This document shows positions 4,547-22,815 of a stretch of DNA of 54,109 nucleotides, one piece after another; the first letter of the stretch is position 1, and every line of letters begins with the position of its first letter. A model generated the notes under the pieces. The model ran no database searches and had not been told where the DNA came from. It worked only from the letters and a program-made list of their open reading frames with translations. Both the position numbers and the translations under genes were made by a program. Source of the stretch: Candidatus Omnitrophota bacterium (lineage in GTDB: Bacteria > Omnitrophota > Gorgyraeia > Zapsychrales > Fredricksoniimonadaceae); assembly GCA_903901225.1 (NCBI GenBank), contig CAIUQE010000005.1, forward strand, positions 1-54,109, written 5' to 3'.

Positions 4547-4554
4547 CAACCGCC

Positions 4555-5933: not shown

Positions 5934-5989
5934 AGAATACAATGGATGTGTTGCGAAAAAGTGGCGTTGGTGTGAACTTTGTGTGAACT
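5934..5989 (-). promoter_or_regulatory. Putative Pho-box promoter of the porin-pstSCAB-phoU operon
   Basis: Minus strand reads GTTCACACAAA GTTCACACCAA (11-bp period), then two degenerate units, then -10 TATTCT at 5939-5934. Confidence 0.7.
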
Positions 5990-6072
5990 TAACCCGGATT
6001 TTTCATTAGAAAAATCCGCCCCGTGAATTCACTTATACCAAATCATTTCGGAAAGGTGAATTCAGGGTCGCG

Positions 6073-6096
6073 TGGCAAATCCGAATGGATTTGCCA
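6073..6096. terminator. Perfect hairpin downstream of phoR
   Basis: TGGCAAATCC-GAAT-GGATTTGCCA, 10-bp stem. No clear U-tract, so function is uncertain. Confidence 0.35.
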
Positions 6097-6194
6097 GCTT
6101 TGCGAGGTAATCCCAGATTTTGCGCGCACTTATAATTACACAATATGCTTACACTATCTGTAACAGCGTGCAAAATGTGGGATCAAACAAGGAA

Positions 6195-7973
6195 TTACGC
6201 CGCGGGAAGGGTAAAACTGAAGGTCGTGCCCTGGCCCACCACGGAAGATACCCAGACTTCACCGCCATGGGCGTGGACGATGTGCTTGACGATCGAGAGG
6301 CCCAGGCCTGTACCGCCCTGGTCACGCGAACGCCCCTTGTCCACGCGATAAAACCGTTCAAAAATACGGCTGAGGTCTTCCGGAGGGATGCCAATGCCGG
6401 TATCCGTGATATCGAAGCGGATGAACCTGCCCTGCGCCACGGCCGCGACATTGACACGGCCGCCATCAGGGGTGTACTTCACGGCATTGTCCAGCAGGTT
6501 GAGGAACACCTGCGCGAGCCGGGCCTCATCGGCCATCACGCGGGACACCCCTTCTTTCAGGGCTACATTGACCGCCAACTTCTTTTCCGTGACCGCCTTC
6601 TCCAATATGGCAAGACTGCGTTGAAGGACAATGCAGGCATCGAGCCGCGCGGGCACAACCTTCATCCGGCCGGACTCGATCCTGGCCAGATCCAGCAGGT
6701 CATTGATAAGATTGACGAGCCGGTCGCTGTTCTCGTGGATTATCCCGAGGAATTCTTTCAGCGCCGCGGGATCTTCCATGGCCCCGCCCAGGAGGGTTTC
6801 CGCGTAGCCCTTGATGCTGGCCACGGGGGTCCGTAATTCGTGCGACACATTCGCCACAAAATCCTGGCGCACTTTTTCCAGCCGCCGCAACTCGGAAACA
6901 TCGTGGAACACCAGCACCGCGCCTTCCACTTTCTGCGACGGGCGGATAACGACACCGTTGACCTTGAGGTCTTTCTCTTCGGGCAGCAGGAAGGATATTT
7001 CCTGGCTGATGACGCGATCCTTGCCCTGCAACAGGCGCTCAAGGATGCCGGTGAGCGCCGTATTGCGGACCACATCAATGGCATGCCGCCCTTCGGGCGA
7101 CGCGTCAATCAAAAACATTTTACGCAAGGCCGGGTTCATCAGCATGACAAGCCCTTTGTCATTGACCAGCATGATGCCTTCAAACATGTGCGTGATGACG
7201 GCGTCGAGCCTGGCTTTTTCCTGCTCGATGTCCGTGATCTTGCTCCTGATCTCGTCGGACATGTGCGTGATCGCGCGCGCCAGGTCGCCCACCTCATCAT
7301 CAGAGCGCACCGAAGGCTTGCGGGAAAAATCTCCGGAGGCAATGGCCCTGGACACGGATGCCATTTCTTCCAGAGGCTTCGAAACGACCCGGGCGATCAA
7401 ATATGTGAAGCCAAGGCTCAGCAGGAATGCCAGCAGGAGCGCGAAACCTACGATCTTCTCCGGCCCCGCCTCCAGAAGTTCGACGTCGGAAAGCGGCATC
7501 GCCAGGCGAACGACCCCCTTGACGCCCCAGCTGTCGAAGGGGACCGCCATATAGAGAAGGTCCTTGCGGATGGTGGAACTGTAACGGCGACTGACGCCAA
7601 AACCCACCTTCACGGCATCGCGGATCTCGGGACGCCCCGCGTGATTCTCGACCGCGTGGATATTGGCATCGCTGACCTCGGAATCCCCAAGGACCACACC
7701 CCTGGTATCAACAAGGGTCACCCGCATGCCAACGGCCATGCTCATCCGGTGGGCCAGCGCTCCAGGCGCGGACATGCCGGCATGCGCCTGGATGTCGGTC
7801 TCCACAAGTTCCCGGGCAAGGGCAACTTCACGCCTGAGGTCGTTCTGAAGGTCCTGGTCAAGGAAAGTTTTTAGATGGCCGGTAAGGTAAAAATAACCCA
7901 GCGCAAGGCTGACGATGACCGCCGAACAGAGAAATGCCGTCAATTTCCAGTGAAGTTTAATCCTCATCATCAT
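6195..7973 (-). CDS. phoR: Phosphate regulon sensor histidine kinase PhoR (TM-periplasmic-HAMP-PAS-HisKA-HATPase)
   Basis: ENHAGRPE sensor motif, FVANVSHELRTP H-box, NAVKYT, IFERFYRVDK, GTGLGL. Overlaps the phoB stop. Exact start among three tandem ATGs is uncertain. Confidence 0.92.
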   Translation of the reverse strand: MMMRIKLHWKLTAFLCSAVIVSLALGYFYLTGHLKTFLDQDLQNDLRREVALARELVETDIQAHAGMSAPGALAHRMSMAVGMRVTLVDTRGVVLGDSEVSDANIHAVENHAGRPEIRDAVKVGFGVSRRYSSTIRKDLLYMAVPFDSWGVKGVVRLAMPLSDVELLEAGPEKIVGFALLLAFLLSLGFTYLIARVVSKPLEEMASVSRAIASGDFSRKPSVRSDDEVGDLARAITHMSDEIRSKITDIEQEKARLDAVITHMFEGIMLVNDKGLVMLMNPALRKMFLIDASPEGRHAIDVVRNTALTGILERLLQGKDRVISQEISFLLPEEKDLKVNGVVIRPSQKVEGAVLVFHDVSELRRLEKVRQDFVANVSHELRTPVASIKGYAETLLGGAMEDPAALKEFLGIIHENSDRLVNLINDLLDLARIESGRMKVVPARLDACIVLQRSLAILEKAVTEKKLAVNVALKEGVSRVMADEARLAQVFLNLLDNAVKYTPDGGRVNVAAVAQGRFIRFDITDTGIGIPPEDLSRIFERFYRVDKGRSRDQGGTGLGLSIVKHIVHAHGGEVWVSSVVGQGTTFSFTLPAA

Positions 7974-8655
7974 CCTGCCTGAAACGGTAGCCCGCGCCGA
8001 TCACGGTCTCAATGAGGCCCCCGGCGACGGACAATTTGGACCGCAGACGACGCACGTGCGTGTCAACGGTGCGGGTGTAGATCTCGGCGTCAATGCCCCA
8101 GACGTCGGTCAAAAGCTTTTCACGGTCCTGCACGCGGCCCCGGCGCTCCATCAGCAGGGTCAGGAGCTTGAACTCCATGGCCGTCAACTTCACCTCGCGC
8201 CCCTTGACCGTCACGCGGTGGCGCTCCTTGTCCAACAGCAGGTCTTTGGCCGCGAGGACATCCCCAGCCTCAGCGCCGGCGCTATGACGCCGCAGCACGG
8301 CTTTCACGCGCAGCACAAGCTCGCGCGGGCTGAACGGCTTGACGATATAATCATCCACGCCAAGTTCAAGGCCGACGATGCGGTCAACCTCTTCGCCTTT
8401 GGCCGTGAGCATCATCACCGGGATGCGCTTGAGATCGGGATCGCGCTTGATGGCGCGGCATACCTCAAGCCCGTCGATGCCCGGCAGCATCACATCAAGC
8501 ATGACCAGATCAACGGACGCAGCCGCCAGCGCGGTGAGCGCGGCCTCTCCGGTTACCGCGATGGCACAGGCATAACCCGCCTTGTCCATGTTGTACTGGA
8601 TCAGGCGCGCGATGTCCTTGTCATCCTCGACGATCAATATTTTTTTCTTGGCCAT
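7957..8655 (-). CDS. phoB: OmpR/PhoB-family response regulator
   Basis: REC domain (VEDD, LDVMLP, LTAKGEE, KPFSPREL) plus winged helix (RTVDTHVRRLRSKL, GAGYRF); adjacent to phoR and the pst operon. Confidence 0.9.
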   Translation of the reverse strand: MAKKKILIVEDDKDIARLIQYNMDKAGYACAIAVTGEAALTALAAASVDLVMLDVMLPGIDGLEVCRAIKRDPDLKRIPVMMLTAKGEEVDRIVGLELGVDDYIVKPFSPRELVLRVKAVLRRHSAGAEAGDVLAAKDLLLDKERHRVTVKGREVKLTAMEFKLLTLLMERRGRVQDREKLLTDVWGIDAEIYTRTVDTHVRRLRSKLSVAGGLIETVIGAGYRFRQDDDED

Positions 8656-8736
8656 AACTTATTATATTACCATACGCATATTTAATTTAAATGCCATGTT
8701 TTTATGGCAAGAAATCACATGTCAAATTTATTGTGT

Positions 8737-8872: not shown

Positions 8873-11800
8873 TTAGCGCACAAGGAACGCGCTCGGGTCT
8901 TCCAGTGGCCCGAATGCCGTGATCCTGAAATCAAATCCCCGAAAAAGCTGAAGGAATTGCAACGAACGCGCGACAGGCACGGTGGCCAAACCTGCGGACG
9001 ATGGCGCCGGAGTTGCCCTGAATTCAATATTATTCCGGGTCCCGCTGAGGTCCAATCCGCCGTTCTCAGGTGCCATCAGAACATTATCCCGCGCGGGGCT
9101 TTCCATGGAAGCATCCGCGCCATTTTCTTCCAGCAGCTTCACAGCCTCCTCCATACCCTCTTTCCCCTTGATATGCACCACCCTGGCCGCGCCGTAATGA
9201 GGCAGGACCGGATCATAGGTAAGGTCATCCCCCGCGTCCTTGCGGGCATTAACGAACATCTTGTAAAAAGTCTTAAAACGGTCACGGGCGTCATCGGGGT
9301 CACTGATCCCGTAATACTGCCCGATATCGGCGAAGCTGATCCGCTTGTTAAGATACCCTGTTAAGATCTCATCCTTGGCTTCCAGGAAATTATTAAGGAT
9401 ATCCGTAGTTATGTGCAAATATTTCAGCTGTGCCCACAATTCCGGGTCCTTCTGCAACCCATCCAATACGCTCTCCAGAACACTGACCGCTTTGGGACTA
9501 AAGACCATGACGCCGCTTAACGCGGGGAACTGCCTTAACGCAGGACGGTTCAGGTCGTACTGGTCTTCCAGGTACTTCAACACCTTGTTGCGATACGTCT
9601 TGCCGACGCCGTCTTTTTGAAGCGCCGGGATATCAAGTTTTTCAAGGATCTCGTTGAGCTCGACCCCCTCGGGAGAGAACTTCATCACGAGCAAACCCAA
9701 TGTCTGGAGTTCTTTCTGGTTGACCCAATCCCCCAGAAGATTCACATCATCGCCGGAAAATCTCGGCATGGGGCCGAAATACGCGTCACGGCTGTAAATG
9801 ATAATGTGCCCGCCCCGCGCGCGGCCATCTTCCGGCGCGCGCATGGACCCGGCGGCACGATACCCGTTCACAACTGTCCAATCAAGGATCCTGTCATTCT
9901 GATGGGCATTATTTCCGTGAAAAACAAACATCACGCGCACATCTTCAGGCGCGCGCCCCTTCAGTTCAGGATACTGTTCCAGGAACGCCCCGTCATTCAA
10001 TCTCTCCCGGACCCGCTGCATCGCTTCGAAATAAACATTCCCGCTGCCCTGACGCCGCGGCGCCACCACTTCAACCGGCACATCTTCCCTGAAGATATTT
10101 CCCCGGCGTCCGGGCACATACCGCTTTCCCAGATCATCGGCATACCCTCTATCTTCAGGGACGATCACGACCATATCCACCGAAGGCTTATCAGCAGTGA
10201 TCTCCCGCGTGAGCGCCTGGACGCCTTCCTGCAACGCCGAACGGACAGTTACCGCTTTGCCATCGCCCTGCGCGTCCATTGCGGCCGGTCCCAGCCGTGC
10301 CCCTAACCCGGCATCCAGCTTTTCGGTCACAGCCTTCATGGTCGAGCTCCACGACATCTGCATGATATCAATATGCGGCACCCAGTAGATCATCAGGCTG
10401 ATCATGACAGCGGCGACCCCCGCCAGCGTCAATCCGCTACTGGCCGAAATAATGCCCAGAAAACTCATGACAAGCGCCGCGCTCAACCCCAGGGGGCCTG
10501 AAATGGTGCGCACCCGGCTCCAAAAACTGCGCATCTTGAACTTGTGGCTGGGGGCTGACCTGATGGGCGACAGAAGACTTAAGGCTTTCTGTGTCACTTC
10601 CGACAATATCTTTTTACTTTCCTGCACAACATTCAACTGGGCATCCGACGGATACAATCCGGGCATCAAGGTATTGCCCTGGGCTAAAAGATCCGGCAAT
10701 TCTCCGAAAAGCCTTTTTTCAGAAAGACGCCACTGATATGTATAAAGAAGGACCCAGCGAAAGAACGGATAAACATTGAACCGTTCGGCCCAATGTGAGC
10801 CCGGGAGTTTATAGCTCATCACCTTGTCGATGATCCCCCGATGTTCCAGGACCCGTAAATACACGTGAACATAACTGATCATTTGCGCGAGGACGCGCGC
10901 GTCGCGCGCCAGCAGCTGCCGCTGATGCTCATCCATATCCGGGCTCTTTTTCACGGCATCATCAAGGACATTCAACGTATCAATGGCCAGCAAATTAAAA
11001 TAGCTGAAGGCCGTCTGGTAATGCTCGTTAAGGACAGTGCCTGATGAATTCACTTTTTCCATAAGATCAGGCGTATACGGCGTCATGCGCAGGACCTGGA
11101 ACGCGTTGTTGAGGATATTATTGAACCCGTCAACAATATCTTGCGACGGGACCGCCGCGCCAGCGCCCCGCCATCCATAAGCGATCTCCTGCCACCGGCG
11201 CAGAAAGTCCCCGATCCCGTCATATATGCCATCCCCGGGGATCGTCACAACGGCAGTCGTGCGTGCCGTTGCCGGCGGGACCGTGCCACGCCAGGCCGTC
11301 CATACGTCCTTCCAGCCGCGGGCATGCCCGTTCCCGTTCATGACCTCGACCGAAAATTCACGCCGGAGCGCCAGGATCAGGTCTTCGACGGAGGCCTTCT
11401 TCAGAAAAGACTTGTTGTTCCATCTCTTGAAAAAGAACACCGGCAAAAATATGACGCTGCCCCACAGGAGCAATTTGTTCATGAGGGGCATGGACGACAC
11501 ACTCTGGTCGTTATGGGCAATATCATCGGCAAACGCGTCCCTCCAATAAATGATGTCCTTCGCCAGCGCCCGTACTTCCCCGGCGCCGCGCTCTTGCACG
11601 CTGTCAAGATAACGCCCCACATCGCGGGGATCCGCGGCGGAGTTGATCCTCTGTTCCAGCGCGTCGATGAGCGCCAATTCGCCCTGCTTGTACGTATGCT
11701 GCAATCCCAGAAAATCGTTAAGAATGCCCTGGCGATACGGCTCGGTCTGCTTCAGGAGGGCCAAAGCCAGCCGCGTCGCCTCAACATTGATCTGGGCCTG

Positions 11801-14800
11801 GCGCATGTTACCCTGGCGGGGATCATCGGCCGTCCTCAACTCGGCGAAGGTGTACGTCTTCAGGCGGATATTCAGCGGCCAATCCTCTCCCAGATGCCGG
11901 GACATCTTTAAAAGGGCTTGACGCAAAATTCCGGTCGCGACCGGGTCTGGAACATCCCGCACATCTTTGGTCAAAAGATCGCTCCATTCGCCGCGGGCTT
12001 CAACAAGCGCGCATAATTCCGGGTCATCCGATGCCGCATAAACCTGCAGGGCCAGGATACGGCCTTGCGGCGTCGTCATCAGCCTGTCGAGGGCCATCCC
12101 TCTCAGGTCTGTCGGCAACGCGAATATCCGCCCCAGCTCCGGAATATCCTTCGTCTGAGAAATATAATTTTTCCGGGCATCAAGGCCAAGCCCGTTGAAA
12201 TAGGCCAGCAAAGGCGCATCATCAACGGAAGTCGCGGGAATATCGTACAATACCGGCGTCCTGGAAACCCCGGCAGCGAGGACGGCTCCCGCGCCTTCCC
12301 TGGCCCTGTCGGACAACCAGGCCGGGAGATGTTTTTCCACATCGCGCCACACGGGTGCTGACGCGAGGAACCGCGCATTGATGTTTTTCAAGCCTTCACC
12401 AAGCATGAAATACGCGTGAATATCTTTTTTTGTGAACAAGGGTGAAACTTTTTCATAGGAACCCCGGTTGATGTCTTCAATGCCGCGCAGGGCTTCCCGG
12501 CGGACGATCTCGTCGTAAACAAGTTGTCGTAAACTGACACTGCGGGCGTCCCGGGCTGTTTTCAGGGAGCTGTGGATCTCGCCCAGCTGGTCCGTGGTCC
12601 AGTAGTCGCTGCGCAACAACCGTATGCCGGCGATCGAGCCTTCCCCCGCCCAGGACAGGAACGTCACCATGACCCTTCGCGCCGCCTCCGGAGAAACGCG
12701 TGTGGCCGAGCCTCCCGCGGCGGATGAATAATTCAATTCGGATAGCCGTTTGATCCCGGCCGGATCCTGGGAAAAGATATCGCTCAAACCCTGAAACCCC
12801 CACGCGACAAGAGTAAATTTCTTTTGCCGGATGGCCTCGTCAATGACGCGCACAAAGAATCGGACATCGCCGCCATCCCTGCCGGCCATATACAAAAGAA
12901 GTCTCTGCTGGACATCGGGATACGCGGAATTCAGGACAGCCTGCTCGACAATACCGGTGAATTTCCGATCATGCCTTCCTTCCTGTAAAAGGAAGTCCAG
13001 CGTTTGCTGGCGCACGATCTCATTAGGTTCCTGCGTAAGGATCCTCAGCGTTTCATCGGACAACCCGTCCGATCCCGCGATGAATGCCAGCGCAGCACCA
13101 CCGGACTTGATGTCATTCTCATACGTGACAGATCCGGGTGTAAAGAACCCGTCGCTGGGTGGTGTAACGACCCGCGCCATATGGCCCTGGAGGGGCGCAA
13201 TGGCAGGTTCAACCGGTCTTTGTGCTTTCCTGGGACGATGATCAACCACCGCCTGCGGTGAACCCACCGCCTCTCTGACCGCGGTGACCGTGTCATTGAT
13301 GACCGGCATCTGTTTCTGGGGCGCCGGCACTGGTTCCTCCACTACTGGCTCGCGCTTGCCCCCCATGTTATTTTTTACGACCCAATCTTTAACCTGCACA
13401 GATGCCTTGAAATATTTCGCTTTAAGATCATCCAGCTTGAGGGCGAGCTCCGTAACTTTCGCGCGCTCATGGACCAGCTGATCCGGACGAAAAAGATCCG
13501 ACTGCCGCAGGCTGTTCTCCCAGGCCTGACGGGCAGAATAATAGGCCGCTGTCTGCACCCTGATCTGCCGGCTCAACGCATCCATCTCCGCAACCGCCCG
13601 CGCTTCCGCAATGGACATATCCTGCAATTCCCAGGAACGGGGATTAAAAGCGCCTCTCTTGTCGATATACACACGCGGGAAATTGCCTTCCCATGGGTAC
13701 TGAAAAACTTTCTTTTCGTTTAAAGGCCATCCCATACTATCCATGAGATAGTTCTTATTGCGCTGTGCATCAGCCAGCTTTTGGCGCGCGTCCTGGATCT
13801 GCTGGTCCAGCGTATTCTTTGCGGACGTAAGCGCAAAGCCTGCCGCCTCCCTCGCCGCAAGCCCGGTACCGGCACTCTCGAGATCAGCCACCAGCTTCGT
13901 CCATTGATCAATATCACGCCTGGCTTTTTCGATATCGACTTTCAGGGCCGTTGACGGCGTGAATTCTTCAGGCATGCCCTTAAAGAAGGCAACGCTTGAC
14001 GCCGACGGCGCCTGGGGCAATGCCACCGGCGGTGTGAGCGGGACGGCATTGACCGGTGATGCCGCAACATTTTGAGATTGCGTAACAGGCTGTGCAGGCA
14101 GCAACGGTGGAACAACCCTTCTCCTGGGTGGCTCTGACCCTGCCGCTGACATCTTCACAGCCCTGGTGCGTGGCACGGGCGATTTCAATGCCGGCCCGAA
14201 CTTCTTGAGGACAAACTGCTTTTCGGCATCGGTGAGCACAATGACCGTGACCGGCATATTGGTCCCCAAAAAATGATGGGGGTCATTAGCCGTAACCTCG
14301 ATCGCCTGGACCGCCCCCAGATTCCTGTCCCGGCTTATGGGGTTTTTATTGATGTTCGTGACGGTCCCCGTAACATTTTTCCCAAAAGCCCGCAGCAGGA
14401 CGGGATCGCCCATTCTGATATCAAGCGCGCGGGGCAGAAGGATCGCGGCGTTCATATTGGTCATATCCCCGACACGGACTGGGCCCTTCAGCGATAGGAT
14501 GGTGTCACCGGGGCCGAAGGAACGCTGGGTCGATATCCCCGTGACAATGCCCGCGCAAGGCGCGGTGATGTTGGAACGGCTGATCACGGCGCCAAGCCCG
14601 CCGAGGCGCGCCCCCAACGACGCTTTTTCTTTCTCCAGCGCCACCATTTGATCGGCGGAAATATAATGGACCCCGTCTCTCGGGGCAAAGCGCTGGAGCT
14701 GGGCACTCACGCGGTCATACTGGGCCCGTGTCGCGCCGTATTCCCCCTGGGCGCCCGGCTGGCTGGCGAGCAACTGGCCGGCTTTTACCAACTGGCCTTC

Positions 14801-17488
14801 CGTAACAAAGAATTTCACCGCGCCAAGGGCCGGCGCCACAACGGGTGACTCTTGCGCCACGCCGACAACAGCGCTCGTTTGCGCCACCCCGATCACCGTG
14901 CCCAGATCAACCTCCGATGCTGATGACGGGAACGCGACGCGCACATCATGGGCGGATCCGGCCTCGATGTTCAGCGATGTGGTGACAAGGAACGTGACAA
15001 CCGCCTCGGTCCGCTTCAAGGGATCCACGCGACAGGCCACGCTGACGATCCCGGTCACAGGCTTGCCATCGATCGTGACGCGAACGCGGCTAAAGTCTGT
15101 TTGCGTCACGGGCATCCTCACGCTGAAACCTGCCCTCTGCCCGGAAAGATAATTGACCAGAGGCATGCCTTTCGCGACCGTCTGCCCGTTAGCAACAATA
15201 AAATTCTTAACCGACAAGTTACAGGGCGCGTAAATGGCACCCGCCTGCTGCGCCTGCAGGAGCGGGGCCAATTGCCGGGAAATATTCGCGACGTCCGTAT
15301 TAACAGCGTCGATCTCGGCCATGGTCGCGGCTTGCTGGCCCTGCAAAGACTTCAACATGGCCAGCCGCTGCCGGGCCATGGCGAGCTGCTGCCTTAGCCC
15401 GCCCATTTGAGGATCGATCGCGGGATCCACCAGCCTGAACATGAACGCACCTTCCCGATATTCTTTCTTATTCGGGTTCAAACCCGTGACAATACCGCCC
15501 GTCGGGGACTTGAGCGGTATCTCGTTGAGCTCGAACGTTGTCCGGATCGACAGTTCATACCCCTTCTTATCCGTTGAAGGTGGCGTGGGTCTCGCCGGTG
15601 CTGGCGCAAGCGCCGGCAAGGACTTGGACGGCTCAGCCTTCACGGGCGCAGGCGCGGGGACTTTGGACGCTGCCTTTTGGCGCACAGCTTCTTGCACCTG
15701 CTTCTGAAATAATGGCGGGGCCTCTTGCTGTTTCATTGGAGCCGTGGCTTTGGTTTCAAGCACATTCCCGGCAGGTGATGCCTCCGTTATTGCCGCTGGA
15801 GGCGCGACCTTCTGTTGTGGCGCCATCCGTGCTTCGAGCGCGCGACGAGTTTCCGATCCCAGCTTCCCGTCTTCCCTGAGCCCCAGGGCTCTTTGCGCCA
15901 CCACGATCACCGCTTCCTGTTGCCAGCCCATGCTCGAAGGTGAAAAAACAGCGTCCCAATGCTGGTGGAGATTTTTCCAGTCAAAATCATACGCCCTCCC
16001 GCTCGACGGGTTTACCTTACCCTGGATATCCCTCACCGCATCCTGGCTCAGGAACCCTTTCATCAAAGAAAAATACTTCTGATCCTGCGCCGGGATCATA
16101 TCGCCCCGACTCACAATATTTCCGGATACCGCGACCGGCCTCTCCGGCCTGGTTAGTCCGGTTGGCCCGGCAACGCTGGTGACCGACGCCGGCTGGGCGT
16201 AAGCGGTATTCTGAACACCGGTAAAGGACGCGGGAGGCGCCAATAATCCAGCGGCAAGAACAAGACTGTACAGGGCTTTGCGGGACATCCCCCGCGATGC
16301 CAGGGAAATCGTAAAACTGTAAAATTTGCTACCCAGGCGCCCCATCAGCTCGCGCAAGTCCGTTAAAGACGGTATCGACCGGTACTCAACGCTCTGGGCC
16401 GCGTCCTTGAATGAAAACCCGCCTGAAAAATAACGGCGCGGGACCATCTGCCGTTCCGTCGGGTCATAATCCTCGCGGATAACATCGTAGACACCTTTTT
16501 TCAACGCCAGCATGTACTGCGCGTAGATCTTCCGGCTGACCTCGCGGTCTTCGTCCTGGATACCGGAAAGCTTTCTCTGGTCCGTATATATCCGGTTAAT
16601 GATATTGTCCTGAAGCTTGCGTTTGAACCAGATGGCCAGGACCAGGGAATTGAACATCTGCCGCAGGCTGGCAAAATACTGGCCCTCATTCACTTCCCGT
16701 TCAAGCTCCGGGATAATGATCTCACGCGCGATGGACAAATAAAGTTTATTGGCTGGCCCGACAGACTCCGGCGCGGCGGGGCCGTCCGTCATCCCCTTTT
16801 TCATGGTCATGTAATCCGCGTCGAGCATCACCTTGAGCCGGCTTTCCGATATGAAGGCCGCGCCTTTTTGTTCATAGACAACAGCTTTCTGGGGAACCAC
16901 CCAAACCTTGCTGATCGTGTCCAACGGCACATCGACACTGCCGTATTCTTTTCTGATCTTCGCGTAGACCCGCTCCCAGAACGTCTTGCCCGGCTCCCGG
17001 TCAGGGAACGTCATGGACGCGGCCAGCTGTTTGAGCAGATAATCTTCCCGGAGCATGTCCCCGCCCGCGGCGGTCCCGCTCAGGGACTTATTAACGATAC
17101 GGTCAGGTTCGGTGGGCGAAAGGTTGACCCAGAGGTCTTCTTCAGGGATGGTCAGGAATGTCAGGAAATAGCGGGTCAACCGGCTGGATCCTTCCTGGTC
17201 CACGCGCCCGTGATCACCGGCATCGACGAGAAAGTTGATCTTCAAAGGATCCGCGGGATCAAGGGCTATGCCTTTGAGGACCGGCAGGGAACCCACGGGC
17301 GAAGCGGTCAACACAACACCAGGGGGAGGTTCCACGATCACGCTTTGGGCCCGCGCCTCCCGCACCCGCAACAGATCAGGCCCGATCAGCTCACTGCCAA
17401 AGACAAGCACCAGCAACCAGCAGGCGCAGCGAAACCATGCCTGCCGCTGTAAACCGGATAAACTTCCTTTGAAGCTGGAACGCAACAT
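8873..17488 (-). CDS. Giant (2871 aa) multidomain envelope protein, Omnitrophota-giant-protein-like
   Basis: Uninterrupted 8.6-kb ORF with SD-like AAAGGAAAC upstream. By eye: signal peptide, conserved-looking N-terminal domain, internal signal-like segment, PG-binding motif, two HlyD-like units, coiled coils, HEAT-like region, 3 TM helices, nucleotidyltransferase-like domain, GGLDL C-terminal motif. Confidence 0.85.
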   Translation of the reverse strand: MLRSSFKGSLSGLQRQAWFRCACWLLVLVFGSELIGPDLLRVREARAQSVIVEPPPGVVLTASPVGSLPVLKGIALDPADPLKINFLVDAGDHGRVDQEGSSRLTRYFLTFLTIPEEDLWVNLSPTEPDRIVNKSLSGTAAGGDMLREDYLLKQLAASMTFPDREPGKTFWERVYAKIRKEYGSVDVPLDTISKVWVVPQKAVVYEQKGAAFISESRLKVMLDADYMTMKKGMTDGPAAPESVGPANKLYLSIAREIIIPELEREVNEGQYFASLRQMFNSLVLAIWFKRKLQDNIINRIYTDQRKLSGIQDEDREVSRKIYAQYMLALKKGVYDVIREDYDPTERQMVPRRYFSGGFSFKDAAQSVEYRSIPSLTDLRELMGRLGSKFYSFTISLASRGMSRKALYSLVLAAGLLAPPASFTGVQNTAYAQPASVTSVAGPTGLTRPERPVAVSGNIVSRGDMIPAQDQKYFSLMKGFLSQDAVRDIQGKVNPSSGRAYDFDWKNLHQHWDAVFSPSSMGWQQEAVIVVAQRALGLREDGKLGSETRRALEARMAPQQKVAPPAAITEASPAGNVLETKATAPMKQQEAPPLFQKQVQEAVRQKAASKVPAPAPVKAEPSKSLPALAPAPARPTPPSTDKKGYELSIRTTFELNEIPLKSPTGGIVTGLNPNKKEYREGAFMFRLVDPAIDPQMGGLRQQLAMARQRLAMLKSLQGQQAATMAEIDAVNTDVANISRQLAPLLQAQQAGAIYAPCNLSVKNFIVANGQTVAKGMPLVNYLSGQRAGFSVRMPVTQTDFSRVRVTIDGKPVTGIVSVACRVDPLKRTEAVVTFLVTTSLNIEAGSAHDVRVAFPSSASEVDLGTVIGVAQTSAVVGVAQESPVVAPALGAVKFFVTEGQLVKAGQLLASQPGAQGEYGATRAQYDRVSAQLQRFAPRDGVHYISADQMVALEKEKASLGARLGGLGAVISRSNITAPCAGIVTGISTQRSFGPGDTILSLKGPVRVGDMTNMNAAILLPRALDIRMGDPVLLRAFGKNVTGTVTNINKNPISRDRNLGAVQAIEVTANDPHHFLGTNMPVTVIVLTDAEKQFVLKKFGPALKSPVPRTRAVKMSAAGSEPPRRRVVPPLLPAQPVTQSQNVAASPVNAVPLTPPVALPQAPSASSVAFFKGMPEEFTPSTALKVDIEKARRDIDQWTKLVADLESAGTGLAAREAAGFALTSAKNTLDQQIQDARQKLADAQRNKNYLMDSMGWPLNEKKVFQYPWEGNFPRVYIDKRGAFNPRSWELQDMSIAEARAVAEMDALSRQIRVQTAAYYSARQAWENSLRQSDLFRPDQLVHERAKVTELALKLDDLKAKYFKASVQVKDWVVKNNMGGKREPVVEEPVPAPQKQMPVINDTVTAVREAVGSPQAVVDHRPRKAQRPVEPAIAPLQGHMARVVTPPSDGFFTPGSVTYENDIKSGGAALAFIAGSDGLSDETLRILTQEPNEIVRQQTLDFLLQEGRHDRKFTGIVEQAVLNSAYPDVQQRLLLYMAGRDGGDVRFFVRVIDEAIRQKKFTLVAWGFQGLSDIFSQDPAGIKRLSELNYSSAAGGSATRVSPEAARRVMVTFLSWAGEGSIAGIRLLRSDYWTTDQLGEIHSSLKTARDARSVSLRQLVYDEIVRREALRGIEDINRGSYEKVSPLFTKKDIHAYFMLGEGLKNINARFLASAPVWRDVEKHLPAWLSDRAREGAGAVLAAGVSRTPVLYDIPATSVDDAPLLAYFNGLGLDARKNYISQTKDIPELGRIFALPTDLRGMALDRLMTTPQGRILALQVYAASDDPELCALVEARGEWSDLLTKDVRDVPDPVATGILRQALLKMSRHLGEDWPLNIRLKTYTFAELRTADDPRQGNMRQAQINVEATRLALALLKQTEPYRQGILNDFLGLQHTYKQGELALIDALEQRINSAADPRDVGRYLDSVQERGAGEVRALAKDIIYWRDAFADDIAHNDQSVSSMPLMNKLLLWGSVIFLPVFFFKRWNNKSFLKKASVEDLILALRREFSVEVMNGNGHARGWKDVWTAWRGTVPPATARTTAVVTIPGDGIYDGIGDFLRRWQEIAYGWRGAGAAVPSQDIVDGFNNILNNAFQVLRMTPYTPDLMEKVNSSGTVLNEHYQTAFSYFNLLAIDTLNVLDDAVKKSPDMDEHQRQLLARDARVLAQMISYVHVYLRVLEHRGIIDKVMSYKLPGSHWAERFNVYPFFRWVLLYTYQWRLSEKRLFGELPDLLAQGNTLMPGLYPSDAQLNVVQESKKILSEVTQKALSLLSPIRSAPSHKFKMRSFWSRVRTISGPLGLSAALVMSFLGIISASSGLTLAGVAAVMISLMIYWVPHIDIMQMSWSSTMKAVTEKLDAGLGARLGPAAMDAQGDGKAVTVRSALQEGVQALTREITADKPSVDMVVIVPEDRGYADDLGKRYVPGRRGNIFREDVPVEVVAPRRQGSGNVYFEAMQRVRERLNDGAFLEQYPELKGRAPEDVRVMFVFHGNNAHQNDRILDWTVVNGYRAAGSMRAPEDGRARGGHIIIYSRDAYFGPMPRFSGDDVNLLGDWVNQKELQTLGLLVMKFSPEGVELNEILEKLDIPALQKDGVGKTYRNKVLKYLEDQYDLNRPALRQFPALSGVMVFSPKAVSVLESVLDGLQKDPELWAQLKYLHITTDILNNFLEAKDEILTGYLNKRISFADIGQYYGISDPDDARDRFKTFYKMFVNARKDAGDDLTYDPVLPHYGAARVVHIKGKEGMEEAVKLLEENGADASMESPARDNVLMAPENGGLDLSGTRNNIEFRATPAPSSAGLATVPVARSLQFLQLFRGFDFRITAFGPLEDPSAFLVR

Positions 17489-17543
17489 GTTTCCTTTCCG
17501 CAGGAACAGAACGCAGTCGAATCAAACATTTTCTGTTAAGCGA

Positions 17544-17599
17544 AATATAACATGGGCGTGGGGACGAAAAGTTACAGGGGTGTGAACTCTGTGTGAACT
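17544..17599 (-). promoter_or_regulatory. Putative Pho-box promoter of the giant gene
   Basis: Minus strand reads GTTCACACAGA GTTCACACCCC, then -10 TATATT at 17549-17544. Same repeat and same 30-nt repeat-to--10 spacing as 5934-5989. Confidence 0.7.
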
Positions 17600-17651
17600 A
17601 TTGTCAAGAATGTCAAATAATGACAGTTAATTCAAGTAATCGAGCTTTTGA

Positions 17652-17773
17652 ACATGTTTAACGCCCCATTGTTTTCGCCGCGCCAAGCGCCAGGTACCCT
17701 TCCGCCTGGAGCGAAGTGAAGCCGGAAGGGTGGCGCGTTAAGGCAGGCGAAAAGTTTCAGGCGCTAAACATGT
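17652..17773 (+). mobile_element. 122-bp MITE-like element, copy 1
   Basis: Terminal inverted repeats ACATGTTTAACGCC / GGCGCTAAACATGT and an internal CCCTTCCG...CCGGAAGGG hairpin. A homologous inverted copy lies at 27575-27696. Confidence 0.75.
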
Positions 17774-17776
17774 ATT

Positions 17777-20125
17777 TCATTTCTTCTCAATAACCACGCG
17801 CCAGTGGTCGCCCTGGCGCTCCTGCAGGATGATCTTGTGCCCTTCATCCCGAACCGAGCCAGGAACATTCTCTATAGGCGCGCCATCATCAAGCCATATT
17901 TCCAGAAGATCGCCGGCTTTCAACCTGGCCAGTTCGACCTTGGTCTTGACGAAATTGAACGGGCAAAGGACGCCGCGCAGGTCTTTGGTGGCTGCCGGCG
18001 CGAGGGCCGCGACCTGAACCGGTACCGGCGCTTCAACCGCGGCAACGGGCGGCTTCCTGAAATTGAAGCCGTTATCCATGTTCTCATACAGCACATTGAT
18101 CGCGCGGGCCAGGGCCTGGATATTTTCTTCCTGCGGCACGAGAGCATCGAACTCCTTGCGCTCGGCCAGGGCCACGAGGCCCTCGAACGCGGGATCCACA
18201 TGCCCCGCGGCAATGAAATGCTGGCGGAAGGCATCGTACAATTCCCTGTCGGTCTTCGGTTCAACACCGCGCGTGATCAACAGCGCCCGGCTCGCGAAAA
18301 AGACCAACTGGCCCAACAGCGGCCCTTTCTGGTCCGCCGCGGCGGTGGAAAGTTTTTCCCGCGTCCGACGGATATTGTTCAGGTCCAGTTCAATGAGGTC
18401 AAAAAGCCCGGTTGAACATTCGCCGGCACCCCGTTCGGCCAGCGAGAAGACCTTCGCGGCGCTCCAGTCAAAATAATAATTCTTGTCGTCGTCAAACGCG
18501 GGGATGTCCTTGTAACGCGCGATAATGGCAACCAGGTCGTCTTTGCCTTCACCGGCGATATACTCTTTGAACGTCGCGAAGCGGTCCGCCTTGCCCAGGA
18601 ACGCGGCGAGGAGGTTTTCCACCACAAGCGTGATCGCCCTGGCGGGGATATCTCCCACCAATGCCGCGAGCTTCGTCGTGCCATCGTGGATCACTGCCCC
18701 CGCGTAAACGCTATAAGCGGGATACATGTGCCCGTCCTTGCGCAGGGCCTTACCGGCAAAGCCCAGGTCCGCGGCCGGATGATGCCCGCAGGAGTTCGGG
18801 CATCCGGAAATATTCAACCGGATCTCCCCGACCTTGTCCAGGTCCAGGCCGCTTGAACCCAGCGACTGGATCAACGCCCGCGCCGCCTGGCGCGAAAGGC
18901 AAATGCCCAGCTGGCAGGTCGAGGCACCCGCGCACGAAAGGACCCGCCCCAGCAAAGCAGGCTTGGGCACAAGGGGCAGCACCCTCACCAGAAAAGCATG
19001 GACTTCCTCCAGCTTTCCCGCCGGGATATTCCGCAACAGGAAATTCTGGCCCCGCGTCACGCGCACGACATCATCGCCAAACCCACCCAGGAACCGCGCC
19101 AGCGCGCCGGCCCCATCGCAGGAAATGAACCCGAGTTCCACCGGCACAAGGACCGAAAAAAGCCCGGCCTGTTTCTGTTCCCTGACATAACGCGCGCGCC
19201 ACAGGACAAACTCCGGCTCACCCGGGCCAGGGTGGACCGCCGCCGTCACGGCGCGCCCGGCCTGGGGCTCGTCGAGCGTGAGCGGCGCGTGCCCCTCCTG
19301 CGTGACCTTATTGAACTCCTCATAAAAACGCCGCTTGAATTCTTCCGCGCCCAGGCCCTGCCACAGGAACCTCAGCCGCGCCGCGTGCTTGTTCTTGCGG
19401 TTGCCGTATTTCCAGAACAGGTTCTTGACGGCCTTGGCGATGGGATAAACCTGCGTGTCGTCGACGAAATCGAACAGGAGGTTCCCGACGGCTGACCGCA
19501 CCCCCAGCCCTCCGGCGACATGAACGCGAAATCCTTTTTTACCATCCACGATCCTCGCGATGAACCCCAGGTCGGCCAATGTCGCCTGCCCCTTGTCGTG
19601 CTCCGAGCCGGAAAAAGCGATCTTGTATTTGCGGGGAAGGTTCCAGGAATCGTTCTCCGCGATAAGGCGCGTGGTCAGCGCCGCCGCGTAAGGCGTCACA
19701 TCAAAAACTTCCAGAGGATCGATCCCGGCATCGTCCTGCGCCGCGATATTGCGCACCGTGTTCCCGCCGCCGCCGCGCGTGGAAAGCCCGGCCTCTTTCA
19801 ACTGGCGGATCACCGCGACAAGGTCGTCCAGCTTCACATAATGGATCTGCAATTCCTGCCGCGAGGTCAAATGCAGGTCACCGACGCCGTAGCGCGCGGC
19901 GATCGCGGCGACCTTCTCCAGCTGGCCCGGGGTCACGATACCGGCGACACAGCGGATGCGCACCATGTACGTGTCCGCCTCTCGCTGTTCATAAACACCG
20001 AACGGGACGCGATGGACCTTAAGCTCGATGGGGGCTATCGCGCCGGCGCGGAATTTTGCTATCAACGCTTCGAGCTGGCCGATCTCCTCATCAAGCTGCG
20101 GCGGGATCTTATAACCTGTCGTCAT
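17777..20125 (-). CDS. sir: Siroheme/4Fe-4S sulfite reductase with C-terminal TusA/SirA-like sulfur-transfer domain
   Basis: FGVYEQR, HLTSRQELQIH, NLPRKYKIAFSG, SCAGASTC...ISGCPNSCG cluster ligands, C-terminal DLRGVLCPFNFVK. Start taken at ATG 20125 after GGAGGT. Confidence 0.88.
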   Translation of the reverse strand: MTTGYKIPPQLDEEIGQLEALIAKFRAGAIAPIELKVHRVPFGVYEQREADTYMVRIRCVAGIVTPGQLEKVAAIAARYGVGDLHLTSRQELQIHYVKLDDLVAVIRQLKEAGLSTRGGGGNTVRNIAAQDDAGIDPLEVFDVTPYAAALTTRLIAENDSWNLPRKYKIAFSGSEHDKGQATLADLGFIARIVDGKKGFRVHVAGGLGVRSAVGNLLFDFVDDTQVYPIAKAVKNLFWKYGNRKNKHAARLRFLWQGLGAEEFKRRFYEEFNKVTQEGHAPLTLDEPQAGRAVTAAVHPGPGEPEFVLWRARYVREQKQAGLFSVLVPVELGFISCDGAGALARFLGGFGDDVVRVTRGQNFLLRNIPAGKLEEVHAFLVRVLPLVPKPALLGRVLSCAGASTCQLGICLSRQAARALIQSLGSSGLDLDKVGEIRLNISGCPNSCGHHPAADLGFAGKALRKDGHMYPAYSVYAGAVIHDGTTKLAALVGDIPARAITLVVENLLAAFLGKADRFATFKEYIAGEGKDDLVAIIARYKDIPAFDDDKNYYFDWSAAKVFSLAERGAGECSTGLFDLIELDLNNIRRTREKLSTAAADQKGPLLGQLVFFASRALLITRGVEPKTDRELYDAFRQHFIAAGHVDPAFEGLVALAERKEFDALVPQEENIQALARAINVLYENMDNGFNFRKPPVAAVEAPVPVQVAALAPAATKDLRGVLCPFNFVKTKVELARLKAGDLLEIWLDDGAPIENVPGSVRDEGHKIILQERQGDHWRVVIEKK

Positions 20126-20516
20126 GCACAACCTCCAGTGTTTCTTCCGTGACCTGCCCGTTCTTTATCCAGAATGCCCTGACGTCTTCGTGGCCGTCCG
20201 CGAGCGATACGATCACATAAAGCTTCCCGGCGTCGTACGCAAGGCGGATGTCCTCAGCCGAAGGCCGCGCCGGGCTGGCCGGATGGCTGTGGTAGACCGC
20301 CTCAAGCGACGTGCCTTTGGCCCGGGCCTCCCTGGTCGCCGCGAACTGCTCCCGGGGATCAAAGGAAAAATGTTCGGGGCTTTTGTCGCAATTCGTCAAT
20401 TCATGGATCCCCGCCAGGACCCCGTCCTTCACAGCGAGGTAGCCGCACGCTTCCAGCGGCGCTTCACGACGGGCATGGGCCAGCAGTCGCTCTTGGATAT
20501 CCCCGGTGATCCTCAT
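20109..20516 (-). CDS. JAB/MPN (M67) metalloprotease, sulfur-carrier processing (HcyD/Mec-like)
   Basis: EACGYL and YHSHPASPARPSAED JAMM motif. Start taken as MRITGD at 20516. Confidence 0.9.
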   Translation of the reverse strand: MRITGDIQERLLAHARREAPLEACGYLAVKDGVLAGIHELTNCDKSPEHFSFDPREQFAATREARAKGTSLEAVYHSHPASPARPSAEDIRLAYDAGKLYVIVSLADGHEDVRAFWIKNGQVTEETLEVVHDDRL

Positions 20517-20517
20517 C

Positions 20518-21333
20518 CTAACCCCGCCCCCGGCTCTTGAGATCGCACACCGCCGGCTCAGCGTCAACGAGCGTCGTTATCGAAGGCCTCTCGCCGCACA
20601 CGGGGCACGCCGGATTCCTGGCGAACTTCACGGTGCGGAAATTCATGTTCAGCGCGTCAAAGACCAGCAGGCGGTTGACCAGGAGCTCGCCCTTGCCGAT
20701 AAGAAAACGCAGGACCTCCGCCGCCTGGATCGTGCCCAGCATGCCTGCCACAGCACCCAGGATGCCGGCCTGTGAACAGGTCGGTACCGCGCCCTTGGGC
20801 GGCGGCGCCGTGAACACGCAACGATAGCAGGCCTGCCCCGGCACGTAGGTCAGCGTCTGGCCGTCGAAACGCAGGATGCCGCCGTGCGAAAAGGGCTTGC
20901 CGCCCAGAACACACGCGTCATTGATCAGGAACTTGGCCGCGAAATTATCCGTCCCGTCGACAATAAAATCGTAATCCTTGATGATGCCCGCGATGTTGGC
21001 CGCAGCGACCCGCGTTTCATACGTGATAACCCTGACATCCGGATTGATGGCCGCGATCTTGTCTTTGGCTGACAGCACCTTGGGCCGCCCGACATCGGGC
21101 GTAAAATGGATCACCTGCCGCTGCAGGTTGGAAAGGTCGACCACATCCCCATCGACGAGGCCTATTGTCCCCAGACCGGCCGCCGCCAGGTACAATGCCA
21201 CGGGCGCGCCCAGCCCGCCGGTGCCGATGATAAGCACCTTGCCGGCCAATATCTTTTCCTGGCCTTCAACACCGACATTGCCCAGGATGATGTGGCGGCT
21301 GTAACGCTCGATCTGCGCGTCGTTCAAATTCAT
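20518..21333 (-). CDS. ThiF/MoeB-family (E1-like) adenylyltransferase (HcyF-like)
   Basis: RYSRHI, GTGGLG, DLSNLQRQ, DGTDNF, CYRC and CPVC Zn motifs, catalytic-type PTCSQAG. Confidence 0.93.
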   Translation of the reverse strand: MNLNDAQIERYSRHIILGNVGVEGQEKILAGKVLIIGTGGLGAPVALYLAAAGLGTIGLVDGDVVDLSNLQRQVIHFTPDVGRPKVLSAKDKIAAINPDVRVITYETRVAAANIAGIIKDYDFIVDGTDNFAAKFLINDACVLGGKPFSHGGILRFDGQTLTYVPGQACYRCVFTAPPPKGAVPTCSQAGILGAVAGMLGTIQAAEVLRFLIGKGELLVNRLLVFDALNMNFRTVKFARNPACPVCGERPSITTLVDAEPAVCDLKSRGRG

Positions 21334-22571
21334 GCCGAAGCCTCCAGGCTTTGTTGGATATCAGCGATCAGGTCACGGCCCTCCTCGATCCCCACGGACA
21401 CCCGGACCATGGTGTCACGCACGCCCATAAGCTGCAGCTGGGCGGCGTCATATTCACCGAAGATCGTCGACGCCGGATGGATGACCAGCGAACGGTTATC
21501 GTGCAGGTTGGTCGCCCGGCGCAACAATTGCAGGGCGTTGATGAACTTGAAGCACTGTTCTTTTGATGTCAGGTCAAACGTCAGCACCGCTCCCGGTTTG
21601 TCGCCGAACTGCGCCCGCGCCGCGGCGTAATACGGCGATGATGCCAGGCCCGGATAATGGACCGAACGCGCAAGGCCGCTGGCCTGCAGGAACTCAGCGA
21701 TCTTCAACGTATTGGCACATGACTGATCGACCCTCAGCGCCAGCGTCTCGAGGCCAAGGCTCTGCAAATAAGCGTTATGGGCTGAAAGGCAGGCGCCGGT
21801 ATTACGATGAACTTCACGCCGTAAACGGCTGATGAAGGCGAAAGGGCCGAACTTTTTGGCGTCCGTCGCGAGCTTCGCGTTGCGTGCCCAGTCGTAACTG
21901 CCATGGTCGATGATGACACCGCCCAGGCTGGTCGCCCCACCCGAGATCCACTTGGTGCTGGAAATAACCTCCACATCCACGCCGAAAGCCTTGGCGCTGA
22001 AAAGATACGGCGGGGTCATGGTCGTGTCCGCGATGATCAGCACGCCCGCCGGCCGCGCCACCGCGGACAAAGCAAGGATATCCGCGACCTCCAGCTGGGG
22101 ATTGGTGATCGTTTCAAGAAAAATGGCCTTTGTCCGCCCGTCGAACAGGCGCGCCACCTCACCCGCCTGTGTCAGGTCGGCATAGCGCGTCTCCAGGCCC
22201 CATTCCTTGAGCGTCTGCTCCAACAAAGAGTACGTATTGCCGAACAAATGGCGGCTCGTGATGATATTGTCACCAGCCTTGGCGATCGTCAGCAGGGTGT
22301 TGGCAATGGCGGCCATGCCCGACGCCAGCGCGAGCACGCCCGCAGCCCCCGTCACGGCCTTGAGGCGTTGCTCAAAATGTTCCACCGTCGGGTTGCTGAT
22401 GCGCGAATACATGTGCGCCGGGCTTTTGCCCTTGAAGGCCAGCTCCAGCTCCTCCGCCGTCTTGAACTCAAAGGTGACATTGTCATAGACCGGCATGTGC
22501 AGAGAGCCGTGCGCGTCCGCCTTGAGGAACTTCGCGTGCAGTATCTTTGTCGAGAACGCCCGGTCGCTCAT
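21330..22571 (-). CDS. metY: O-acetylhomoserine sulfhydrylase-like PLP enzyme (Cys/Met metabolism family)
   Basis: YSRISNPT, ASGMAA, ETITNP, SSTKW (PLP Lys), IHPASTI, VRVSVGIE. Confidence 0.8.
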   Translation of the reverse strand: MSDRAFSTKILHAKFLKADAHGSLHMPVYDNVTFEFKTAEELELAFKGKSPAHMYSRISNPTVEHFEQRLKAVTGAAGVLALASGMAAIANTLLTIAKAGDNIITSRHLFGNTYSLLEQTLKEWGLETRYADLTQAGEVARLFDGRTKAIFLETITNPQLEVADILALSAVARPAGVLIIADTTMTPPYLFSAKAFGVDVEVISSTKWISGGATSLGGVIIDHGSYDWARNAKLATDAKKFGPFAFISRLRREVHRNTGACLSAHNAYLQSLGLETLALRVDQSCANTLKIAEFLQASGLARSVHYPGLASSPYYAAARAQFGDKPGAVLTFDLTSKEQCFKFINALQLLRRATNLHDNRSLVIHPASTIFGEYDAAQLQLMGVRDTMVRVSVGIEEGRDLIADIQQSLEASA

Positions 22572-22789
22572 ATGTCCCTTTTCGCCCCGCCGCCCATGAA
22601 ATAAATAAAATCCACCTCATCATCCTGGGCGACCGGCGTCTGGGCGAGTTTTTCTTTCGCGACAAATTCACCGTTAAGCTGCACCGCGACCATTTCGGGA
22701 TTCGCGACACTGGAACGTTGCAGCACCTCGGCCACCGTGAGCGCGGCTTCAGCGGCCGTAAAAACCTTGCCATTCACCTTCAGCGTCAT
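22568..22789 (-). CDS. ThiS-like sulfur carrier protein with C-terminal extension (HcyS-like)
   Basis: 73 aa, MTLKVNGK...VAVQLNGEFV...DEVDFIYFMGGGAKRDI, with SD AAAGGAG upstream. It is hidden in the 3' end of ORF 22568..23260. Confidence 0.9.
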   Translation of the reverse strand: MTLKVNGKVFTAAEAALTVAEVLQRSSVANPEMVAVQLNGEFVAKEKLAQTPVAQDDEVDFIYFMGGGAKRDI

Positions 22790-22815
22790 TGTCACGTCTC
22801 CTTTATTAAACATGT

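Follow-up and report, generated by a model that had tools for sequence, protein, structure and literature searches.

Two predicted periplasmic adaptor modules and TolC-derived helices in a giant putative envelope protein of an Omnitrophota bacterium

Tripartite efflux pumps and the systems of type I secretion are composed of three separate proteins, and their 3:6:3 stoichiometry has long been debated. Whether two of these components can reside in a single polypeptide, and what such a chain would do, is the question raised by a 54,109 nt stretch of DNA from a Candidatus Omnitrophota bacterium (contig CAIUQE010000005.1 of assembly GCA_903901225.1, positions 1 to 54,109; in the following, the window). 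For positions 13380–15560, an earlier note, made from the sequence alone, had proposed two tandem HlyD-like adaptor units followed by TolC-like helices. This region lies inside one open reading frame (ORF) on the minus strand (8873–17488, including the stop codon), which encodes a protein of 2,871 amino acids (aa) that has full-length orthologues and whose translation contains all the peptides quoted in the earlier note. Residues are numbered according to aa = (17488 − nt)/3 + 1, and all features of the gene described below are on the minus strand. The terms periplasmic adaptor protein (PAP) and membrane fusion protein (MFP) are used synonymously; OMF denotes an outer-membrane factor, and OEP the Pfam family PF02321. 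The window's own genome (2.38 Mb) is designated G000, related genomes carry other G numbers, and genomic loci and representative proteins are labeled L and P, respectively.

For the adaptor part, an AF2 model of aa 630–1110 was built from an alignment of the window with eight orthologues from genomes (A1, nine rows). The model has a mean pLDDT of 79.5 and shows twice the same succession of strands, helix-turn-helix, strands and barrel. Unit 1 comprises aa 645–852 (14933–15556), with hairpin helices at aa 691–716 and 723–749, and unit 2 comprises aa 869–1084 (14237–14884), with hairpin helices at aa 914–933 and 945–972; the borders proposed earlier (aa 643–855 and 867–1087) were right to within a few codons. 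In both units, a lipoyl domain is split around an alpha-hairpin (model helices 62–87/94–120 and 285–304/316–343, located between strand blocks) and is followed by a beta-barrel, so that the lipoyl, hairpin and barrel arrangement is present twice. In comparisons with VIA-align, the lipoyl halves (model residues 26–154 and 250–372) matched biotinyl/lipoyl domains with Z scores of 10–11 and an rmsd of about 2 Å. With the barrels included, unit 1 (model residues 5–229) was superimposed on residues 34–271 of 4l8j (Z 13.7, 224 aligned residues) and on residues 22–265 of MexA, with Z scores of 12.1–12.5 for MexA, MacA and EmrA, and unit 2 (model residues 237–459) on residues 59–323 of Spr0693 (Z 11.7, 203 aligned residues), with BesA at Z 10.2. 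A Foldseek search of the PDB yielded 68 matches with E ≤ 1e-3, the top ranks of which were exclusively MFPs (4l8j, 7.8e-11; MexA, 1.6e-10, TMt 0.59). The modeled hairpins are short, with 20–28 residues per helix, and there is no room between the units for a membrane-proximal (MP) domain. The RLS motif has the pattern R-x3-L-x6-S. At the tip of the unit 1 hairpin, inspection of A1 by eye revealed L-x6-T/S in seven of the nine sequences, and the window protein has M at the position where L012, L010 and L009 have R. An RLS motif at the hairpin tip is named in a figure legend of PMC8277102. According to the model, aa 645–852 and aa 869–1084 are two complete adaptor modules, each with a split lipoyl domain, a hairpin and a barrel.

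The profile searches gave the same result as the model and the fold comparison, in agreement with the tandem HlyD-like units proposed earlier. When the A1 profile was compared with the PDB sequences, it matched 4l8j (E 5.5e-12, in two stretches, one on each unit), the MacA-MexA chimera 4dk1 (1.4e-11, unit 2), MacA, LipC, MexA (4e-4) and EmrA (1e-3, unit 1). Among 1.84 billion representative proteins, 10,101 matches at E ≤ 1e-3 were obtained. The best of these were mostly proteins of about 1,600–4,000 aa, together with short fragments, followed by ordinary proteins of about 350 aa; all 20 sampled matches of 333–370 aa were HlyD_D23, HlyD_3 or HlyD_2 proteins in Pfam. In about 35 clusters of proteins of at least 1,600 aa, a single stretch matched at least 390 of the profile's 502 positions, and thus the tandem arrangement is conserved. 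The HlyD_D23 cut-off was passed by the orthologue L011 (33.3 bits) and by the representatives P0014 and P0058. Profiles of unit 1 and unit 2 aligned with each other in register (hhalign 95.6%, E 1.1e-8, 129 columns), and the two window sequences alone gave a BLASTP E value of 0.04. Judging from these alignments, the two units are homologous but anciently diverged.

The helices downstream of the adaptors, separated from them by a Pro/Ala-rich linker that is evident from the translation (aa 1100–1170; 13979–14191), had been likened to OMF helices in the earlier note (aa 1182–1370), as its weaker inference. By descent this assignment is right: aa 1181–1370 (13379–13948) can be traced to OEP via the orthologues and via alignment to the genome's own OMFs, the window copy alone being not significant. 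When the eight members of alignment A2 (aa 1170–1400, the window and seven orthologues) were scanned singly, five matched Pfam OEP (best E 1.7e-12), and the window copy did not. Among the eight full-length orthologues, six exceeded the OEP cut-off of 22 bits (L010, L011, L012, L014, L015 and L016, the latter with 50.4 bits in two stretches), and OEP was not found in L009 and L013; the cut-off was also passed by seven of 15 sampled giant representatives. G000 encodes five ordinary OMFs with two OEP repeats each (contigs C34, C48, C47, C31 and C21; L098–L105). A2 aligned to these five proteins (A5) with an hhalign probability of 94.8% (E 5e-8), with A2 columns 12–205 on OMF columns 162–344, which encompass helices, a linker, the next helix and the strand region. 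The long forms of the giant protein, that is, those retaining the strand-bearing parts, gave 94.3% on their own (OMF columns 160–344). Compared with PDB sequences, the A2 profile found only coiled-coil noise. A prediction of a three-copy complex of aa 1170–1400 with A2 (score 0.00, mark 0.42) counts neither for nor against an assembly. Some ORFs beside the five TolC-like genes have RND-like or adaptor-like N-termini by eye. A complete two-repeat TolC protomer in the long forms was considered and is not supported for its first half (Gly-rich segment versus the OMFs' N-terminal half, hhalign 0.3%).

The explanation that we favor for the protein as a whole, and to which we would give an even chance, is that of a membrane-anchored envelope protein, in which a fused adaptor pair and an OEP remnant contribute to an adaptor-type periplasmic tube or scaffold. 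It builds on observed domain identities, deletions, family distribution and a shared cis-element. In the large middle section, most likely periplasmic, two diverged adaptor modules are fused head to tail and followed by the Pro-rich linker and the TolC-type remnant; in orthologues, including three from the same genus, the OEP unit keeps its beta-hairpin, and a single chain there connects the PAP pair with an OMF-like unit. The chain would then return to the inner membrane via three transmembrane (TM) helices and end in the cytoplasm with a domain of nucleotidyltransferase (NTase) fold. The protein may oligomerize, probably as a trimer, and three chains would provide six PAP modules; provided that the OMF-like part is taken as one full protomer, this is the canonical number in a tripartite pump. 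PAP hexamers have been described (PMC8277102; PMC4446572; PMC4338810), and DSY0927, an adaptor pair fused in nature, the two-adaptor pump TriABC and engineered AcrA dimers are cited in support of a trimer of PAP dimers (PMC4446572; PMC4338810). The tube or scaffold would link the protein's own inner-membrane and cytoplasmic module to the outer envelope. In the window's strain, it would either dock on a separate protein, one of the five that are TolC-like, or have no passage through the outer membrane, and in the long forms the outer membrane could be within reach of the OMF-like unit.

Several observations weigh against this explanation. The window protein itself fails the curated adaptor cut-offs (TIGR01730, RND_mfp: 29.3 bits versus 94.9, E 3.9e-7); a Pfam scan of it gave no HlyD match, only sub-threshold PG_binding_1 and Biotin_lipoyl_2, and a phmmer search of the PDB with the window sequence gave a single match with E 0.34. 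The relative orientation of units 1 and 2 is not confidently modeled (pTM 0.39), and the topology is ambiguous, two hydrophobic segments flanking the N-terminal domain. The window ORFs scanned up to about 18 kb from the gene (251–37063) and 40 flanking ORFs of six orthologous loci included no exporter of the ABC, RND or MFS type; the only transporter genes of this kind seen were those of the pst importer. The statement of the earlier note that no ABC or RND pump is adjacent thus holds for exporters, but a pstSCAB importer is encoded 4–8 kb downstream. As for the TolC-type part, aa 1150–1400 of the window have no Pfam OEP match on their own, and the window and L009 lack about 100 residues common to the other six members of A2, namely the strand-bearing middle. 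Even in the long forms, only about 1.5 OEP repeats are supported, because the Gly-rich segment upstream does not significantly match the OMFs' N-terminal half. Finally, an orthologue from the same genus, L164, lacks the whole cassette of linker, adaptor pair and OEP unit (window aa 557–1477).

The gaps of the window and L009 fall on those A2 columns that match the strand region of the genome's own OMFs. In addition, where the long-form orthologues have a Gly-rich segment (alignment A10), the linker of the window protein is shorter by about 115 aa. The short-form clade alone aligned with the OMFs at the same place (aa 1169–1257) without significance (hhalign 0.5%, E 0.11). The long form occurs in G001, G003 and G004 of the same genus as well as in other genera, and the short form was seen only in G000, G007, P0003 and P0004; therefore, the short form is a derived deletion. 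By alignment, about 215 residues, the strand-bearing parts among them, have been lost in the window's lineage, and according to the Pfam profile coordinates, the surviving part would correspond roughly to the C-terminal coiled-coil halves of two OEP repeats. Since the strand-bearing parts are deleted and the coiled-coil helices remain, the window protein is predicted to be unable to make its own outer-membrane barrel.

A more far-reaching view, which we consider unlikely, is that the family encodes a tripartite trans-envelope machine in a single chain. In this case, the two membranes would be joined covalently by a trimer, which would serve as a conduit induced by phosphate starvation and working without an ABC, RND or MFS pump. 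Its parts would be an inner-membrane anchor, a PAP heterodimer, an internal TolC-like unit in the outer membrane, the return of the chain and a cytoplasmic nucleotidyltransferase, and the window's strain would represent a variant that shed the barrel.

We assign the same low likelihood to the possibility that nothing passes through the protein at all and that it serves as an envelope tether or spacer. The adaptor and OEP modules would then be rigid oligomerizing struts, equipped with a peptidoglycan-binding motif, that position the domain of aa 1440–2000 and couple it to the cytoplasmic NTase-fold domain. Such a role would be in line with the lack of a partner pump nearby, with the loss of the OEP strands in the window's lineage, with the shortness of the hairpins (20–28 residues per helix) and with a weak PG_binding_1 signal at aa 522–560 (15809–15925), which is below the cut-off both in the N-terminal piece of the window protein (E 0.0055) and in L009 (E 0.0032). 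However, none of the three domains is missing from either adaptor unit, and the units are conserved in at least 35 clusters of proteins. Moreover, an OEP repeat that passes the Pfam cut-off is retained in the long forms, together with the segment aligning to the strand region of the genome's own OMFs, which is hard to explain for a mere strut. The region that the struts would position, aa 1440–2000 (11489–13171), is conserved in alignment A8 (aa 1400–2330) and has no Pfam or PDB match; the A8 profile gave one noise match in the PDB and no meaningful Pfam family.

The distribution of the family bears on the question of whether the adaptor and OEP block is still in use. In a length-matched search of 5.8 billion proteins, three other full-length clusters were found, with identities of 78, 62 and 46%. 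The region of aa 640–1400 is present in 11 of 41 related genomes, all of the window's own family (10 of 24 there when G000 is not counted), and in none of the 16 genomes of other families of the order. Within this family, 31 of 63 genomes have the C-terminal 871 aa; among the high-quality genomes the count is 14 of 25, and among the genera 12 of 17. L164 (contig C9 of G005, 2643–8702, plus strand) is a complete orthologue of 2,020 aa, which joins the equivalents of aa 1–556 directly to those of aa 1478–2869 and is still followed by Porin_5 and pstS genes. Because this orthologue is complete without the cassette, the cassette appears to be dispensable for the role of the core. The block could be a decaying relic in this genus, while the N-terminal domain, aa 1440–2000 and the membrane/NTase module do the real work, a view that would accommodate three states in one genus (intact, strand-less, and absent in G005) and an OEP part that is unrecognizable alone in the window. 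Nevertheless, we judge it to be quite improbable, because the adaptor units of the short form have 44% identity between the window and L009 over aa 630–1110, without frame breaks, and fold confidently. This conservation and the confident fold in the short form argue for continued selection on the adaptor units.

The N-terminus of the protein opens with a hydrophobic helix at aa 17–40 (17369–17440), a hydropathy peak that is found at the beginning of most paralogues. It is followed by a leader domain (aa 40–400; 16289–17371), which is the most conserved part of the protein (64% mean column identity in alignment A4). The leader has no relative in Pfam, the PDB or, by name, the Atlas: the A4 profile gave no PDB match, and the Atlas returned only Omnitrophota hypothetical proteins. 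Within G000, a genome search gave 53 matches, and hmmsearch found the leader in 47 ORFs of 232–3,955 aa, always at the N-terminus (e.g., C39:35017–46881 and C34:66665–74089), and at least 584 stretches were confirmed in genome contigs. Of the best 80 loci, all but one, which is titled only "bacterium," carry the title Candidatus Omnitrophota/Omnitrophica or "uncultured Planctomycetales." Among the 20 longest paralogues, 12 have no Pfam match and eight do, with cargo of AvrB_AvrC; HD, methyltransferase and cytidine deaminase; a Cys/Met PLP enzyme; TPR; HATPase_c; HAD; a weak radical SAM; and UDPGP. The giant protein is the sole member of the leader family in G000 with an adaptor region (one match in the genome). 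Together, the sequences form a family with a common leader and variable cargo.

AvrB_AvrC is a family known from plant-pathogen effectors. It was found with E 1.2e-22 (81 bits, two stretches, the best at aa 1137–1197) in L118, a leader paralogue of 1,696 aa (G000:C34:31989–37076, minus strand), and is unexpected in an Omnitrophota genome from lake water.

The leader could in principle target variable cargo out of the cell, so that the adaptor and OEP part would act in or on the envelope of another cell. The wide use of this 360-aa leader, enzyme- or effector-type domains in eight of the longest paralogues, and the predatory or parasitic lifestyle that has been proposed for the phylum (PMC10066038) would fit this view. 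We nevertheless regard it as very unlikely, given that the three further TM helices and the cytoplasm-type NTase-fold domain fit a resident membrane protein and that the enzyme-bearing paralogues lack a hydrophobic segment after the leader, which fits a cytoplasmic leader equally well. That the ORF is an assembly chimera or was mis-called across unrelated genes, as the signal-peptide-like segment in its interior (aa 401–432) might hint, is next to impossible, since independent genomes and metagenome proteins have the same continuous architecture and every sampled word of the stretch is present in four sequencing runs. These are runs of lake-water DNA and may be the source of the stretch; no RNA run was among the runs found to contain it.

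The interior segment of aa 401–432 (16193–16288) consists of basic residues, about 18 hydrophobic residues and an AxA-like end. It is found in 12 of 12 sequences that cover the region, and some paralogues show a hydrophobic peak at this position. Either the helix of aa 17–40 or this segment would be the single crossing that places the adaptors outside; the large middle section (aa 430–2000) is most likely periplasmic. Further downstream, hydropathy and AF2 revealed a TM helix at aa 2002–2022, a helical domain at aa 2023–2325 and a TM hairpin at about aa 2326–2377 (together 10358–11485). If aa 430–2000 are periplasmic, one TM helix plus a hairpin would place the NTase-fold domain in the cytoplasm, and since the cytoplasm is where such a fold is expected, this fits in turn with a periplasmic middle section.

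The C-terminal part (aa 2001–2871) was modeled from an alignment of 16 rows (A9) with a pLDDT of 78.3 and a pTM of 0.77, giving a helical domain and an alpha/beta domain. For the helical domain (aa 2001–2400), only generic helical-repeat matches with Z ≤ 9.9 were found. The alpha/beta domain (aa 2422–2800; 9089–10225) matched the GDP-fucose pyrophosphorylase part of FKP (9iis) with Z 17.2 (266 aligned residues, rmsd 3.6), and more than 30 further pyrophosphorylases followed at Z 10–12 (e.g., GMPPA, RmlA, AGPase, and GlmU at about 12); the Foldseek E value for this domain was 1.7e-5. Atlas leads for the C-terminus, below 0.9, were UDP-glucose pyrophosphorylase and NTP_transferase, and CofC was a weak lead in one of six orthologues (E 0.0037). 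The window copy of the domain has no Pfam match, and the C-terminal profile (A3) gave no match to PDB sequences. By eye, aa 2422–2800 do not show an evident copy of the glycine-rich signature that usually follows the first strand. The 16 aligned sequences instead share a GSGN loop almost without change; G2481 and N2484 are invariant in them, and R2467 is almost invariant. According to the model, aa 2422–2800 adopt the Rossmann-like alpha/beta fold of sugar-nucleotide pyrophosphorylases, at about 12% identity. A kinship of this domain to the UDPGP-bearing paralogue L132 was also considered, and no relation was found by profile.

The genes that follow the giant gene on the same strand point to phosphate. 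A PhoB-type response regulator adjoins it (7957–8655), followed by a PhoR-type kinase and by the genes porin-pstS-pstC-pstA-pstB-phoU, which are headed by the gene for a Porin_5 porin. Such pho/pst genes flank the giant gene in five of seven genomes (the window's, G007, G001, G015 and G005); none were found beside the orthologue in G021 and G020 within the reach of the contigs. The direct repeat GTTCACA-N4-GTTCACA (18 nt) is present upstream of both the giant gene (17581–17598, minus strand, starting 110 nt upstream of the start codon) and the Porin_5 gene (5971–5988, minus strand, starting 108 nt upstream). On both strands of the 2.38-Mb genome, these are the only two copies with at most one mismatch, the chance expectation being 0.014 for exact copies and 0.63 with up to one mismatch. 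Copies with up to two mismatches lie about 90–100 nt upstream of the orthologue in L009, L010 and L014, and further copies lie upstream of the porin gene in L009 and L164. A PhoB box consists of two 7-nt direct repeats with a period of 11 bp, and the repeat is, to judge from its sequence, a candidate PhoB box of this lineage. No sigma-70 consensus promoter was found in 17440–17800, and there is one weak terminator-like site at 8692–8709. Because the Pho-box-like repeat is shared only with the neighboring porin-pst operon, the giant gene is probably induced by phosphate limitation and co-regulated with the pst operon.

The upstream neighbors are sulfur-assimilation genes. A cluster on the minus strand (17777–23260) encodes a sulfite/nitrite reductase with a C-terminal TusA domain (784 aa), a JAB peptidase, a ThiF-type E1, a Cys/Met PLP enzyme and a ThiS-like carrier, and has the look of a pathway to thiolated amino acids via a sulfur carrier protein. 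Genes for PAPS reductase and CysN/C-like proteins are located at 27780–31190. The ThiS-like ORF (22568–23260, minus strand, 230 aa) has ThiS only at its C-terminus and overlaps, in another frame, the ORF of a BPD_transp_1 permease (22816–23634, minus strand) by about 445 nt; the ThiS gene probably starts much later than called.

How does the protein compare with known systems? As in EmrA/HlyD, MacA, MexA and 4l8j, the order within each unit is lipoyl, hairpin, beta-barrel (Z 11.7–13.7), and as in EmrA, for which this is stated in PMC4446572, there is no MP domain. In contrast to EmrA, MacA and MexA, the hairpins are short, the units have no N-terminal TM helix or lipid of their own, and there is no cognate transporter gene. 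Two different MFP modules also act as one unit in DSY0927 of Desulfitobacterium hafniense (in one polypeptide), in TriABC-OpmH and in engineered AcrA tandem fusions. However, these adaptors are proteins of ordinary size that belong to ordinary ABC or RND pumps, and the reviews cited above do not describe any of them as joined to an OMF unit, to a leader of 360 aa, to additional TM helices or to a domain of nucleotidyltransferase fold. The orthologues with an OEP repeat above the cut-off resemble TolC/OprM and align to OMF columns 162–344, but the OEP unit is internal to an inner-membrane-anchored chain, only about 1.5 repeats are supported, and its strands are deleted in the window protein. 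The C-terminal domain has the fold of the FKP GDP-fucose pyrophosphorylase, at about 12% identity and with the GSGN loop instead of the usual signature. Like the giant ORFs reported from Omnitrophota (Seymour 2023, PMC10066038; West-Roberts 2023, preprint 10.1101/2023.11.21.568195; Nielsen and Lui 2026, preprint 10.64898/2026.06.07.730766), the protein is long, membrane-anchored, mostly unannotated and from the same phylum, whereas the subjects of those papers are ORFs of more than 20 kb or proteins of at least 10,000 aa. The main texts of the three papers, as distinct from the supplements, contain no mention of HlyD, TolC, membrane fusion, efflux or adaptor. Our search of the literature on fused or tandem adaptors and OMFs retrieved only general reviews, and neither an adaptor pair joined to an OMF unit nor the giant-protein family was found. 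Fused adaptors as such are already known from DSY0927.

The family of 47 ORFs with the common leader is an unannotated and probably important feature of Omnitrophota genomes. A natural chain of two different adaptors and an OMF-type unit would genetically fix the ratio of adaptor to channel, and it would also pose the problem of how a protein anchored in the inner membrane delivers a barrel-forming segment from its interior to the outer membrane. The long form, the strand-less form and the form without the cassette represent a natural deletion series within one genus, and the Pho-box-like element provides a testable expression condition in an uncultured phylum.

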